From Thermoproteota archaeon (GTDB lineage Archaea; Thermoproteota; Thermoprotei; Thermofilales; B9-G17): 64,000 nucleotides of DNA. Where the stretch lies: assembly GCA_029258885.1 (NCBI GenBank), contig JAPDJW010000010.1, forward strand, positions 1 through 64,000, in the 5' to 3' direction. Shown here piece by piece: positions 6,033 to 64,000 of this stretch. The notes beneath the pieces are model-generated. The model saw only the letters and a list, made by a program, of their open reading frames with translations. It made no database searches and had not been told where the DNA came from. The translations under genes and the position numbers were made by a program. Numbering within the stretch: the first letter of the stretch is position 1; every line of letters starts with the position of its first letter.

Positions 6033-7135
6033 GATGTTACGTCAAGTAAAAGCCTATTCCAGGTACGAATAACCTCTTTCCAAGACCATTTCTCCGTATA
6101 GGCCTGTGCTCTACGTGAAATCTTATCCCTTAATTCATGGTTCCGTAGTAGAAGCATGATTGTATTAGCTAGACCATTTATATCACCCATATCAACGAGC
6201 AGCGCGCCAGTATCATTAGCTAAATCCACTAATCCACGTGTCCTATAGGCTATAACAGGCGTTCCGCAGATAGTTGCATCTAAGCCAGCTATACCGTACC
6301 CCTCGCCGTAGCTCGTATATATGAAGAGCCAGCTACTAGATAACAGTTCTATCTTCTCCTCCTCGGAAATCCTTCCTTTAATTTCAACAACTCCATCCAA
6401 GCCAAGCCTTAGCGCCATCTGTTTAAGCTTCCTCAAATATTTCGGCCACCCTCTTCCAGCAATAACGTGCTTATACCCTTCCACCTTTAAGGAGACCAGG
6501 CGTGCAGCAAGTATCTGATCCTCAATACGTTTATATGGAACTACTCTACCGATATAGCATGTCTGCGGATTCTCCGCCTTATCGATGACTTTAGGCTTAC
6601 GTATGGATGGAGCAGGCTTAACTATAGAAACCCTATTCCCATCAACTATTCCCTCAATAGATCTCCTAGAGCTCTCCGAAACAGTTACAACTACACGAGC
6701 CTTCCTATATGGACTGAGCAGTAGTGGTTCAAGCATGTATCCTGCTAAGGCTATGGGTGGAGGTGTATGGTAAAACCATGCTTTCCCAGCAAGCTGGTGG
6801 ATAAACATTATTATTGTCTCACGCACGTATAATGGAGTTAGAAACGGAATAGTGTTTACCTCATCCACTACAACATCCACCTTACCTTTAAAATACTTAA
6901 GGTATTTCATGTATGCCTTCGAGTACACCGTAAACTTATTGCCGCATCTAACGACTGTGTACCCAGAAATATTTTCCACTGTAGGTAGCCCTGGAACGCT
7001 GCTTGTTAAGAGGAATACTTCATGGCCGAGCTTAGAGAGTCCACTTAAAAGCATGTGCGTATATATCTCTGCGCCCCCAGCCTCAGGGTTCCTAATACAT
7101 CTCCAGTTTAGGCAGAGTATCCTTAAACTCTCCAC
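6029..7135 (-). CDS. GT4 glycosyltransferase
   Basis: Motifs NPEAGGAE, YIGRVVPYKR, EGYGIAGLDA, G.PVIA. Confidence 0.9.
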   Translation of the reverse strand: MESLRILCLNWRCIRNPEAGGAEIYTHMLLSGLSKLGHEVFLLTSSVPGLPTVENISGYTVVRCGNKFTVYSKAYMKYLKYFKGKVDVVVDEVNTIPFLTPLYVRETIIMFIHQLAGKAWFYHTPPPIALAGYMLEPLLLSPYRKARVVVTVSESSRRSIEGIVDGNRVSIVKPAPSIRKPKVIDKAENPQTCYIGRVVPYKRIEDQILAARLVSLKVEGYKHVIAGRGWPKYLRKLKQMALRLGLDGVVEIKGRISEEEKIELLSSSWLFIYTSYGEGYGIAGLDATICGTPVIAYRTRGLVDLANDTGALLVDMGDINGLANTIMLLLRNHELRDKISRRAQAYTEKWSWKEVIRTWNRLLLDVTS

Positions 7136-60303: not shown

Positions 60304-60462
60304 TTCCCTTTAATAATAACTTTAATTATAGTTATAAATAATTTGGTTGGATATTTTACTGTAAAAGACGAGGTATAATTAAGTCAGCTGAAGAGTATTA
60401 CTGAGAAGTTTAGAATAAATGTTTAGGAGGATTTTAAATAGCCTTTGTACTATTGTTTAACT

Positions 60463-61239
60463 GGTGCTGACAACTTAAGTTTATTGGGAGGATCCGTAGC
60501 CTATAATGTATGGGCAACAAGCAACACAAGCTCTTTAGGAGACTACGGACCCCATTATGGATAATGCTCTACGCAATATATCTTTATCTCTCAGGACTAA
60601 GCCTAAGGCAAGTAGAGCGAACACTAAAGACAGCGGGAATAGATAGGAGCAGGGAAGCAGTTAGAAAATGGATACATAGGTTCGGAAGCCTAAGCCTGAA
60701 GCTACTTACACCGAAAGCTAGCAGAAGAATAGCCGTAGTCGATGAAACATGTATTAGGCTAGGACGGCAGAAAGCCTGGCTCTGGATTGCAGTAGACCCC
60801 TATAATAGGGCGTTCCTAGCCTTCCAGATAACTCCAGTACGCAACGTATGGACTGCATACAGCTTCCTAAGGAGGCTTAGGCGTAGACACGGCGTCAGGA
60901 TAGTCATTACGGATGGCGCTACCTGGTATCCCTCTGCAGCGTGTTGGGCTAGGCTTAGGCACGTAGTGCTTTCAGGCGGTATGAGGAGCTATGCTGAACG
61001 CCTCATTGAATGTTTGAAGGATAGGATGAAGGGCTTTGACGTTTGTTTCCCGCGTTTAAGCCTTAAGCGTTTTACTAGTGCTATTTCCTGGATTGGTGCC
61101 TGGCTTGCCTTCTACAATTACGTTAGAACTCATTTAAGCTTAGGTTTTCCGCCTTTAGGCTTAAAGCCGCTGGATGAGTTTGCTAGATTATGCTGGCTCG
61201 TATGTGAGGTGATGCATATTGCATAAAGTTGTCAGCACC
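60463..61239 (+). mobile_element. IS6-family insertion sequence (777 bp)
   Basis: Perfect 14-bp terminal IRs GGTGCTGACAACTT (60463..60476 and 61226..61239) enclosing the transposase; no target-site duplication seen. Confidence 0.92.
60510..61226 (+). CDS. IS6-family DDE transposase
   Basis: HTH GLSLRQV; D (VDET), D (ITDG), E (AER) triad; YN..R.H.SL. Confidence 0.92.
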   Translation: MGNKQHKLFRRLRTPLWIMLYAIYLYLSGLSLRQVERTLKTAGIDRSREAVRKWIHRFGSLSLKLLTPKASRRIAVVDETCIRLGRQKAWLWIAVDPYNRAFLAFQITPVRNVWTAYSFLRRLRRRHGVRIVITDGATWYPSAACWARLRHVVLSGGMRSYAERLIECLKDRMKGFDVCFPRLSLKRFTSAISWIGAWLAFYNYVRTHLSLGFPPLGLKPLDEFARLCWLVCEVMHIA

Positions 61240-61288
61240 AATTCTACTTACAAAAGACTTAATTTGATCTTATACCATATCTAAATTA

Positions 61289-61769: not shown

Positions 61770-61812
61770 GTTCACACTATAAAAATAAGCTATCACAAAG
61801 ATTCGGCGGGTA
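61770..61812 (+). repeat. Left copy of 43-bp inverted repeat flanking the recombinase; contains TATA box
   Basis: GTTCACACTATAAAAATAAGCTATCACAAAGATTCGGCGGGTA; 38/43 identical to the reverse complement of 63135..63177. Confidence 0.9.
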
Positions 61813-61813
61813 C

Positions 61814-63016
61814 TTGTTGGATAGACGCCACACAACGATCCAGCGAGGCCCAGAAACAATACTAGAAAACTGGTATAGGCCAATTAAGCTCAAGACAGGG
61901 AAGATAAAGGAACTACCTCCTCCACCCGATGGTTCTAAGGAGTTTGCAGTCAAGTTCCTTGAATGGTTAAAGAGTAGAAGAGATTACTCTCCAAACTCTC
62001 TACACAGGTACCTAATAGCCCTTAGGAAGATCCTCTCTTGGCTAAATATACATGGAAAGTCCCTTGAGGAGATGACTTATGAGGACTACCTCAGAATGTA
62101 CTCCGATCTTAACGAACAAAAACTCCCCGAGAACGTTAAACTGATTCTGAAGTACCTATACGAGCTCACAGACGATGAAAAGTACCTGAAACTCTACAAC
62201 AAGATCCGGGTCAAGGAGAAGAAACAGAGAATGATTGATGTCCTCAACGAGGATCAAGTTCAGAGACTAATCGAGGCCTGTGGTAAAATCGATTTCGAGC
62301 TGAAAGTCCTAGTCGAAGTAGTCTACGAGGCTGGGGCTAGAGTAGGCGAAATCTTATCCCTGAAAAGAAAGGATATCGAGTTTGACGAGCATGGTGCTAA
62401 GATATACATAAGGAGGAGTAAGAGCGAGTTTAGAGTAGTAAGAGTAGTTCTCTATGCCACTGACTTACTAAAACTATGCGAGGGAAAAGATCCTGAAGAC
62501 TACATCTTCAGCTATGAATACAATAGATACTTAAAAAAGTTGACAAGAGCTTGGGCATTAGCAGAACTCCCACCTATCAAGAGAAAGTTCCATGTTCTAA
62601 GGCACAGCAGAGCTACCGAGCTATTAAGAAAACGCATATTCACGGAGCAGGAGATGATGAGGTGGTTCGGGTGGAAGACTAGGAAGATGATAGACGTGTA
62701 CAGCCACATCACCATGGAGGACGTGGAGGAGCGCTACCTATCACTCTACAACAGCAGTGAGCGTAAGGATTTAAGGCTGAGGAAAATCTGTACCCGCTGC
62801 GGTTTATCGATCAATGACAACTTCAATTTCTGTCCACGATGTGGCCAACCCCTGTCCTCAGAGGCCTCCCTAGAGAGGCTTTTGGAAGCTCATAAGAAGG
62901 AGAGCGAGGTGGAGGAGGCGAAGATATTACTCGACAAACTGCTCGACTTAGTGATGAGGAATCCAGAGCTTGTAAGAAATCTTCTCTCAGGAGACCTGCG
63001 GCAAGGTAAAGCTTAA
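61814..63016 (+). CDS. Tyrosine recombinase/integrase with C-terminal Zn ribbon (SNJ2-like architecture)
   Basis: R (GARVGE), K (RSKS), HxxR (HVLRHS), W (FGW), Y (VYSH); CTRCG...FCPRCG. Confidence 0.93.
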   Translation: MLDRRHTTIQRGPETILENWYRPIKLKTGKIKELPPPPDGSKEFAVKFLEWLKSRRDYSPNSLHRYLIALRKILSWLNIHGKSLEEMTYEDYLRMYSDLNEQKLPENVKLILKYLYELTDDEKYLKLYNKIRVKEKKQRMIDVLNEDQVQRLIEACGKIDFELKVLVEVVYEAGARVGEILSLKRKDIEFDEHGAKIYIRRSKSEFRVVRVVLYATDLLKLCEGKDPEDYIFSYEYNRYLKKLTRAWALAELPPIKRKFHVLRHSRATELLRKRIFTEQEMMRWFGWKTRKMIDVYSHITMEDVEERYLSLYNSSERKDLRLRKICTRCGLSINDNFNFCPRCGQPLSSEASLERLLEAHKKESEVEEAKILLDKLLDLVMRNPELVRNLLSGDLRQGKA

Positions 63017-63134
63017 CCCTATACTTGGAATCTCTCAACAGGGCTTCAATAACGTAACTCTTACCCAGCAATATACGTAGCCTATCGATTATACGCTTTA
63101 CACAGTCTATCTCCTCCGAATTTACTGTCACCAC
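62823..63134 (-). CDS. Short ORF behind the right inverted repeat, antisense to the integrase 3' end (coding status uncertain)
   Basis: GTG start immediately follows the right repeat, mirroring the integrase start; 194 nt overlap with the integrase. Confidence 0.3.
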   Translation of the reverse strand: MVTVNSEEIDCVKRIIDRLRILLGKSYVIEALLRDSKYRVKLYLAAGLLREDFLQALDSSSLSRAVCRVISSPPPPRSPSYELPKASLGRPLRTGVGHIVDRN

Positions 63135-63177
63135 TACCCGCTAAATCTTTGGGATACCTTATTTTTATAGTGTAAAC
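63135..63177 (-). repeat. Right copy of 43-bp inverted repeat; contains TATA box
   Basis: Minus strand GTTTACACTATAAAAATAAGGTATCCCAAAGATTTAGCGGGTA. Confidence 0.9.
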
Positions 63178-63316: not shown

Positions 63317-64000
63317 TTAATAAAGAACGGTTATATCTTCAGGAATACCAACGTTCTCATCGCTTGCAACTATCTGAGCATATCTATAACTAAGCCTTAG
63401 ATCTATTGGCATTCGTGTTCGTGGAGCATCAAGCATGTAAGGATAGAGTTTCGTTAACCAAAGTATGTCCCTTAGATCATTTTTTGTGAGGTCTGAGTCT
63501 TTGGGATACTCTAATGATACTTGTATGGGTCTAATTGCATGTCCGGGTACAGCGTATGGAGGTCTATGTGGGTAGTATCGCCATTTACCTGTAGTGTATA
63601 ATTGAGCTATTCTCCCAGGTTCTAGAAACCAGTATACTCCCACCTCAGGCCAAGCCCTACTAGCCTTTTCAATATTCATATATAGCCGCAATGGTGATGT
63701 CTGTTGTACTCTTACTATCTTTACATCATTAGATCCTTTATTTACTAAGACTTCGTATAGTAGTCTATGAAATCTTTTTGAATACAGGTCGGTTAGGTGT
63801 ACAACGACATTTTTACCCTTAACTTCTTTAGCTATAGAAAGAACTAATTGTATAAACTTATCCTCGCTTCCCTTATCACCTATGCTTAACATGCCTTTAG
63901 TTTCTTCATATATAAACAGTAACTTTCCATATACACTACTCTCATATTCACCCCAATTATTATACATTTGAAGTACAGCAATACCCGCTCTATATCTACC
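63317..64000 (-). CDS. Prokaryotic Argonaute, C-terminal PIWI domain (5'-truncated by window edge; probably non-catalytic)
   Basis: Frame is open to the window end (GRYRAGIAVLQMYNNWG...). PIWI-order motifs: VVHLTD, VQQTSPLRLY, PEVGVY, LYTTG, RPIQV, DILWLTKL, RMPIDL. Confidence 0.8.
   Translation of the reverse strand, partial: GRYRAGIAVLQMYNNWGEYESSVYGKLLFIYEETKGMLSIGDKGSEDKFIQLVLSIAKEVKGKNVVVHLTDLYSKRFHRLLYEVLVNKGSNDVKIVRVQQTSPLRLYMNIEKASRAWPEVGVYWFLEPGRIAQLYTTGKWRYYPHRPPYAVPGHAIRPIQVSLEYPKDSDLTKNDLRDILWLTKLYPYMLDAPRTRMPIDLRLSYRYAQIVASDENVGIPEDITVLY

Follow-up and report, generated by a model that had tools for sequence, protein, structure and literature searches.

A split, inactive archaeal Argonaute of an uncharacterised lineage, with a putative membrane effector and a SiAgo-like design

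Introduction

What does an Argonaute that appears to have lost its catalytic residues do in an archaeal genome, and with which partners does it act? The question was raised by an open reading frame (ORF) at the end of the stretch of DNA analysed here (the window; 64,000 nucleotides, positions 1–64000 of contig C7, which totals 71166 bp), from a 2.1-Mb metagenome-assembled genome (MAG) of 26 contigs derived from a hydrothermal-vent metagenome. A preliminary description of the window had read this frame as an unannotated, non-catalytic prokaryotic Argonaute (pAgo) in a mobile island, and had placed its effector genes upstream, beyond the window. Prokaryotic immunity includes a rapidly expanding class of inactive Argonautes that recruit a killer protein distinct from themselves, of which the SiAgo system is, to our knowledge, the only archaeal example to have been studied.

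The SiAgo operon of S. islandicus consists of M164_1612 (SiAga2, a toxin with two transmembrane (TM) helices), M164_1613 (SiAga1) and M164_1614 (SiAgo) (bioRxiv 10.1101/2021.12.09.471704), and none of the three proteins is dispensable (Zeng et al., bioRxiv 10.1101/2021.12.09.471704). SiAgo-Aga1 binds its target via a 5'-phosphorylated RNA guide, which licenses SiAga2 to depolarise the membrane. Structures of the system have been published (8ZNJ, 9LGW; PMC11788926). Beyond depolarising the membrane, an effector of the Aga2 type is marked by a soluble domain that has a basic lipid-binding pocket.

Results

The pAgo gene and the ORFs upstream of it

The window holds the C-terminal half of the pAgo gene, which is open at the window edge; as had been anticipated, the ORF continues beyond it, on C7 as far as a GTG at 64669. 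Three ORFs of 180, 98 and 432 aa lie upstream on the same strand and belong to two genes, here called B and A. Coordinates above 64000 continue the window numbering on C7, and positions in locus L003 equal the C7 coordinate minus 63000. The parts of the cassette are as follows.

63317–64000, minus strand: C-terminal 227 codons of pAgo, mostly PIWI; the sole cassette part inside the window
C7:63317–64669, minus strand: full pAgo gene, 450 aa, as an ORF on the contig
C7:64644–65186, minus strand: C-terminal ORF of gene B, 180 aa, overlapping the pAgo start
C7:65218, minus strand: +1 frameshift (extra T) in gene B, from comparison with relatives
C7:65215–65592, minus strand: N-terminal part of gene B, including the 98-aa ORF at 65215–65511
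C7:65617–65751, minus strand: 45 conserved codons of gene A, stranded downstream of the premature TAA
C7:65752–65754, minus strand: premature TAA in gene A, from comparison with relatives
C7:65752–67050, minus strand: truncated ORF of gene A, 432 codons, likely start ATG at 67035

Upstream of gene A, a stretch of about 1.6 kb (C7:67051–68700; L003 4051–5700) carried no ORF of 70 aa or more, tRNA or Rfam match, and its GC content (0.44) was above that of the operon. Near the contig end, an overlapping pair on the minus strand (C7:70441–71134; L003 7441–8134) resembled a toxin-antitoxin-type module, comprising an 87-aa CopG/RHH protein (E 3e-7) and a 147-aa protein that matched no known family. 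No tRNA or Rfam family was found anywhere in C7:63001–71166.

A short Argonaute of MID and PIWI domains

All of the PIWI motifs listed in the preliminary description were found in the translated minus-strand ORF (GIAVLQMYNNWG, VVVH, PLRLY, PEVGVY, LYTTG, RPIQV, DILWLTKL and RMPIDL), and PIWI matches were returned by both HMM and structure searches (PADLOC, Foldseek, VIA). The PADLOC pAgo model PDLC02436 matched residues 34–439 of the 450-aa protein (E 1.5e-39), phmmer with the pAgo returned CpAgo (E 7e-10), CbAgo (E 1e-6) and then SPARTA Argonautes, and a profile of the family matched SPARTA, CbAgo, CpAgo and SPARSA at E 3e-14 to 2e-6. An AF2 model of the pAgo (pLDDT 73, pTM 0.74) matched the short pAgos of SPARSA, SPARDA and SPARTA in Foldseek (E 1e-19 to 1e-16) and essentially every Argonaute in VIA, with Z scores of 24–27 over residues 1–449 (AfAgo 26.5, SiAgo 25.0). 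The predicted structure establishes a MID-PIWI protein; clade placement is not given by structure. The protein aligns to residues ~310–750 of long Argonautes and is a short form, made up of the MID and PIWI domains alone.

The Pfam Piwi model matched neither the window fragment nor the full protein. Because this model misses the family, relatives of the pAgo at NCBI have been deposited as 'hypothetical protein', and the lesson for annotation is that the Piwi model of Pfam is blind to the clade.

Loss of the catalytic tetrad and retention of a MID motif

The catalytic positions were read against DEDD/DEDH long pAgos in three alignments (HMMER to CpAgo, a 93-sequence MAFFT alignment and L-INS-i). 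Three of the four tetrad positions were placed, the other being the Glu-finger. The first catalytic Asp is S214 in the pAgo and S, A, N, H or V across the clade. HRDG corresponds to H291-L292-T293-D294, in which the catalytic Asp has become Thr (T293) and D294 is aligned with the Gly, while Y-A-D/H corresponds to L426-S427-Y428, placing Tyr (Y428) at the fourth position. The readings HLTD and LSY that had been proposed from the window for these two sites thus hold in alignments with DEDX long pAgos. The positions of S214, T293 and Y428 are non-acidic in every clade member, and the full gene lacks a DEDX tetrad, in agreement with the proposed non-catalytic pAgo. Since three of the four tetrad positions have been lost clade-wide, the sequence evidence, within its limits, rules out slicing.

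Four residues that were assigned by motif position to the pocket for the guide 5' end in the MID domain (Y141, K145, Q156 and K192) were invariant in a 16-sequence alignment of the family. This invariant Y-K-Q-K motif points to putative binding of a 5'-phosphorylated guide.

Gene B has the predicted fold of an Argonaute N-terminal half

By sequence, gene B (~311 aa) belonged to no named family: nothing significant was found in Pfam, nothing in PADLOC, and no matches to the PDB were obtained with either the single sequence or a profile. Its AF2 model (pLDDT 84; beta-rich in the middle, at about residues 136–235, conceivably a PAZ remnant) resembled long Argonautes in their N-terminal halves, and it also matched AfAgo-N, SiAga1 and the APAZ domains of SPARSA, SPARTA and SPARDA. 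The top VIA match was SiAga1 (8znj_B; Z 16.0, rmsd 3.1 over 208 residues), KmAgo residues 1–313 and the APAZ domains scored Z 14.4 and 12–13.5, respectively, and AfAgo-N (8olj) was matched in Foldseek at E 2e-7. The gene B product is, by its predicted structure, an Argonaute N-L1-L2 fold (an Aga1/APAZ-like subunit).

A complex model of pAgo and B scored 0.79, a value reached by 58 of 80 solved complexes and by 2 of 110 mismatched pairs; the three controls scored 0.01 at best. Contact agreement between runs was at least 86% and partner pLDDT at least 86. The model supports predicted binding of B by pAgo, and part of its score may stem from the likeness of the pair to solved Ago-APAZ and SiAgo-Aga1 complexes. 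The predicted contacts join the pAgo N-terminus (residues 2–9) and PIWI residues 323–350 and 374–377 to the first (3–13) and last (301–309) strands of B. In the published SiAgo-Aga1 interface, SiAgo T6, 322–328, 343–347 and 387 contact Aga1 E4, N6 and E13 (PMC11788926), and the predicted contacts fall in the same regions. Independent support for the pairing comes from a natural fusion of the Rosetta-stone kind: P0034 (708 aa), which nests inside the pAgo clade, matches the B profile at residues 15–278 (E 1.3e-13) and the pAgo profile at residues 367–691.

The junction between genes A and B is unusual. At C7:65592–65620 (L003 2592–2620), conserved B coding sequence follows directly after the TGA of gene A in the same frame (…ISR, stop, CIITSEIYSSNLYKN…), and no ATG, GTG or TTG stands ahead of ~30 conserved codons. 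The same feature was seen in L006 (about 7050–7080) and L007; in L004, A and B are in different frames and a GTG is present. Gene B could use a non-canonical start (ATT/ATC), or the TGA could be read through to yield an A-B fusion.

Gene A encodes a putative membrane protein

Gene A (~466 aa) has two adjacent hydrophobic C-terminal helices that are predicted to be TM helices. The five intact copies that were aligned (L004, L006, L008, L009 and L010) all had a helical N-terminal part of ~370 aa, the two hydrophobic helices and a basic tail of ~45 aa; two adjacent hydrophobic helices were also present in L022 and L014, and a single broad hydrophobic stretch in L023. Searches of Pfam, PADLOC and the PDB (by sequence and profile) gave no recognisable family for gene A, and the ESM Atlas gave no usable match (best score 0.78, below the lead threshold). 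A partial match to the PADLOC GajA model was weak (E 4e-4) and was taken as chance. Gene A follows the pAgo in its distribution, being found in the few metagenomic lineages that carry it. Its likeness to SiAga2 resides in its position, its size and its two TM helices.

The three-gene order recurs in a small clade of its own

The effector genes that had been predicted to lie upstream of the window correspond to the N-L1-L2 gene B and the two-TM gene A, which are on the same strand and nearly abut the pAgo gene. In a Desulfurococcales MAG with a 78% identical pAgo, the operon consists of a 466-aa A, a 311-aa B and the pAgo. The same nearly abutting order was found in L006/L007 (69% pAgo identity), L010 (61%), L008 (40%) and L009 (38%), as well as in L022 and L023 of the wider clade. 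The A-B-pAgo order recurs in eight loci (L004, L006, L008, L009, L010, L014, L022 and L023), and in distant loci the profiles of A and B matched at E 4e-23 to 2e-16 and E 1e-23 to 4e-21, respectively.

An exhaustive HMMER search of 1.84 billion representatives returned 16 sequences at E ≤ 1e-30, with the next at 2.7e-21. In a tree of 93 pAgo representatives, from which SiAgo was left out, the family formed one clade (SH-aLRT 99, or 98 with P0032) set apart from the other 75 short, long and fused pAgos. This clade is small and well supported. Few examples of the family exist (20 clusters among 5.8 billion), and it is known almost solely from metagenomes. Besides this genome, two GTDB species genomes carry it, one of Desulfurococcales and one of Bathyarchaeia, and it was found in none of 119 other genomes of the class (72 of them of high quality).

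Two loci of the clade have other neighbours. In L026 (149–5129), the gene ahead of the fused 708-aa P0034 encodes a protein of 943 aa in which Ras/Roc GTPase and Schlafen AlbA_2 domains are combined; this protein may be an alternative effector for the same sensor clade. A variant cassette in L021 (2024–6329) comprises a 231-aa B homologue and a 442-aa pAgo, with a 205-aa AAA_15/SMC_N fragment and a 475-aa protein (without TM helices or similarity to gene A) upstream and a 641-aa AAA_15 ATPase downstream.

Both accessory genes are interrupted in this genome

Gene B is split into the 98-aa and 180-aa ORFs by a single extra T at C7:65218 (TATTATTAAAG). In gene A, the TAA replaces a Tyr codon of the relatives inside the second TM helix, and the 45 codons behind the stop are conserved. 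The pAgo ORF is intact. A sister contig from another sample (L014), 99.5% identical over ~4.2 kb, has TAC and no extra T, such that A and B are both intact; it otherwise differs by 21 substitutions and one single-base indel downstream of pAgo. Between the two copies, all four substitutions in pAgo are non-synonymous, with the derived state split between copies, and six of seven in gene A are synonymous; in both genes the substitutions are too few to judge selection. In one metatranscriptome run, contigs covered three pieces of the operon at a depth of 2–3, derived from a relative population and with DNA carry-over possible; this coverage is not taken as evidence of transcription.

The lesions could be sequencing or assembly errors of the MAG, the cassette of the real organism being intact. 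The MAG, in 26 contigs, was assembled from a hydrothermal-vent metagenome, and populations with intact alleles, 99.5% identical, coexist in related samples; intact alleles were present in Logan contigs of two other studies. However, an independent Logan assembly, a 10-kb contig at depth 16 from the likely source run, is identical over L003 1600–4100 with both lesions included (the lesions were checked on contigs, and this confirming run may be the MAG's own source), and neither lesion lies within a long homopolymer. We regard an error as quite improbable, and the lesions look real.

If the lesions are real, the cassette might still be working. The N domain of the split B and an L1/L2 part starting from a GTG 29 nt downstream would reassemble on pAgo, and the truncated A, with TM1 and half of TM2, would still be an effector, or a milder one. 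The break in B falls exactly in a disordered linker of the model (residues 118–132, with pLDDT < 50 at 118–125 and 130–132), the 180-aa ORF has its own GTG after the stop, the pAgo frame is uninterrupted and conservation persists in both fragments. Yet two independent disabling changes have accumulated within ~4.2 kb that otherwise differs from the sister by 21 substitutions, every relative has B in one frame and A at full length, and losing half of the TM hairpin together with the basic tail is unlikely to be neutral. A functional split cassette is, in our judgement, unlikely. With two lesions that hit both accessory genes and spare the sensor, loss of function fits best, and the local cassette is probably no longer working.

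The cassette lies in a mobile setting

The preliminary description had placed the pAgo in a mobile island, and the surroundings of the cassette bear this out: a tyrosine integrase and an insertion sequence (IS) lie directly downstream, homology is limited to the cassette, and the family is absent from the 119 other genomes of the class. The downstream features are as follows.

60459–61243, plus strand: IS element with a DDE transposase (ORF 60510–61226) and 18-nt terminal inverted repeats
61770–61817, no strand: left arm of a 48-nt inverted repeat that brackets the recombinase gene
61814–63016, plus strand: tyrosine recombinase (Phage_integrase, E 3e-19), running convergently with pAgo
63130–63177, no strand: right arm of this 48-nt repeat, separated by 140 nt from the stop codon of pAgo

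The arms of the 48-nt repeat are 85% complementary, and the adjacency of pAgo and integrase is retained in a sister metagenome contig. The sister contig L014 ends exactly at the right repeat (C7:63144), as would follow from breakage of assemblies at the repeat or from inversion of the segment. Homology to relatives with 68–78% identity stops exactly at the cassette borders, and the cassettes of these relatives are surrounded by further genes of defence or toxin-antitoxin type (McrBC, PIN, an OLD-family ATPase and a methyltransferase). The GC content of the operon (35–38% vs 40–45% in the flanks) is suggestive and not decisive. Direct repeats resembling att sites were sought around the cassette and none was convincing.

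Two further Argonautes in the same genome

A second pAgo system is found at C4:172806–174155 (L019 5762–9621, minus strand). Its 465-aa short pAgo is of the SPARSA type (PADLOC pAgo, E 1e-100; GsSir2/Ago 8in8_C, E 7.5e-35) and has R, T and K at the tetrad positions. A 356-aa protein with a faint match to the APAZ part of TIR-APAZ lies directly upstream, together with a 472-aa protein that has two C-terminal hydrophobic helices. This cassette is laid out as TM protein, APAZ-like protein and short pAgo, without sequence similarity to the C7 cassette, and neighbours a type II methyltransferase and an LmuA-like protein.

A third pAgo (C1:560926–562059; L020 5876–7078, minus strand; 400 aa, MID-PIWI) is closest to CbAgo (E 1.4e-21), and its DEDH tetrad is apparently intact (GLD, a Glu-finger candidate, HRDG and YAH). 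A truncated yet possibly catalytic Argonaute of this kind is unusual. A 136-aa zinc-ribbon-like ORF lies upstream of it.

Discussion

Relation to known split and short Argonaute systems

The C7 operon has the architecture of the SiAgo type (a 2xTM gene, an N-L1-L2 gene and an inactive short pAgo), although the three genes are not all intact in this genome. Both systems are archaeal, lie in mobile or variable regions and place a TM effector (putative in C7), an N-L1-L2 partner and a ~450-aa MID-PIWI pAgo in the same order; both tetrads are dead, with Thr at the third position. Gene A, like SiAga2, has two C-terminal TM helices (predicted here), SiAga1 is the best structural match of gene B, and the predicted interface occupies the same regions. 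In sequence, however, no relation was detectable beyond the general pAgo fold. SiAgo (8znj_A) was not matched at E ≤ 1 by the protein or by the family profile although the chain is present in the database, where it was matched by another pAgo of the same genome; the same profile matched SPARTA, SPARSA and long-A Argonautes at E 1e-14 to 1e-6. Membership of the SiAgo sequence clade was therefore rejected, the profile missing 8znj_A and the family forming its own clade. Further differences are the MID pocket (H-K-Q-K in SiAgo, Y-K-Q-K here) and the length of gene B (about 311 aa vs 237 for SiAga1). No HTH gene was seen beside the C7 operon. The link to SiAgo is one of architecture and fold. Of the new archaeal pAgo system that had been suggested from the window, what stands is a new lineage or variant; the kind of system as a whole is not new, its design being that of the published SiAgo system.

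AfAgo (fAfAgo) of Archaeoglobus fulgidus is likewise a MID-PIWI protein with a separately encoded N-L1-L2 partner, AfAgo-N (PMC10954474). It is split, truncated and inactive, and forms a heterodimer with this upstream-encoded partner; in contrast to the C7 cassette, we found no report of a membrane effector gene, and AfAgo has been assigned to the long-B lineage and is absent among the PDB sequence matches of the family profile at E ≤ 1. SPARSA, SPARTA and SPARDA supply the best Foldseek matches of the pAgo, their partner APAZ domains resemble gene B (Z 12–13.5), and the logic of a sensor plus an effector in abortive infection may be shared by analogy. Their effector (SIR2, TIR or DREN nuclease) is fused to APAZ, whereas in C7 no effector domain is joined to the APAZ-like gene B, and the putative effector role falls to a membrane protein encoded on its own. 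BPAM, a long-B pAgo with the trans-membrane protein bAgaM (PMC10620215), is a further case of an inactive Argonaute with a membrane partner, bAgaM being the proposed effector of abortive infection, but its pAgo is full length, bacterial and without a split N-L1-L2 partner.

A probable sensor subunit of a proposed membrane-targeting cassette

Taken together, we consider it probable that the pAgo is the sensor subunit of a three-gene abortive-infection cassette of the SiAgo type that is, in this genome, most likely dead. The folds, the tetrad loss, the conserved operon, the predicted pAgo-B interface and the natural B-pAgo fusion were observed or computed here; the nature of the guide, the activation of gene A and membrane toxicity we infer by analogy. 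The A-B-pAgo order equals that of Aga2-Aga1-Ago, so the most likely mechanism here is that of SiAgo. Together, the dead MID-PIWI pAgo and the N-L1-L2 gene B would restore a bilobed Argonaute that lacks PAZ. This pair would hold a 5'-phosphorylated guide in the Y-K-Q-K MID pocket and bind complementary invader nucleic acid, and target binding would activate gene A, anchored by its C-terminal two-TM hairpin. Activated gene A would then damage the membrane, and the infected cell would be stopped.

A different role is conceivable, in which guide-directed binding by the pAgo, with B, would in itself be enough to silence or block the DNA or RNA of an invader, with no killing effector involved, as proposed for RsAgo; gene A would then act otherwise or play no part in defence. 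The pAgo is the sole intact gene of the three in this genome, and the clade neighbour is exchangeable (the 943-aa Roc/Schlafen protein in L026 and the AAA_15 ATPase in L021). Against this, A and pAgo closely track each other in distribution, their ORFs abut or overlap across 38–80% identity, SiAgo requires all three of its proteins, and exchangeable neighbours are the usual pattern for the effector modules of inactive pAgos (PMC10620215). We consider a binder of this kind very improbable.

The sensor of a SiAgo-type cassette could also have a separate history. Tentatively, and with more doubt than confidence, the clade may be an Argonaute lineage in its own right, distinct from the long-A, long-B, canonical short, SiAgo-like and PIWI-RE groups; it would have arisen by the splitting of a long inactive Argonaute, with the fused P0034 surviving, and would use exchangeable effectors, including a gene A with a killing mechanism unrelated to that of SiAga2. 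If so, it would be a second, convergent origin of the design of a split Argonaute with a membrane effector in archaea, and this genome would be a natural case of loss of the toxic arm with the sensor kept.

In sum, these archaeal Argonautes, split and inactive, make up an uncharacterised lineage that has a putative membrane effector and is SiAgo-like in design. It extends the same three-part design to a sequence-unrelated lineage of hyperthermophile and sediment archaea (Desulfurococcales, Bathyarchaeia), in which the partner and putative effector proteins are presently annotated as hypothetical and missed by Pfam. The natural fusion and the effector-swapped variants may aid in working out how target binding is signalled to the effector, and nature has here supplied two almost identical cassettes for comparison, of which one is intact and the other is disrupted in both accessory genes.
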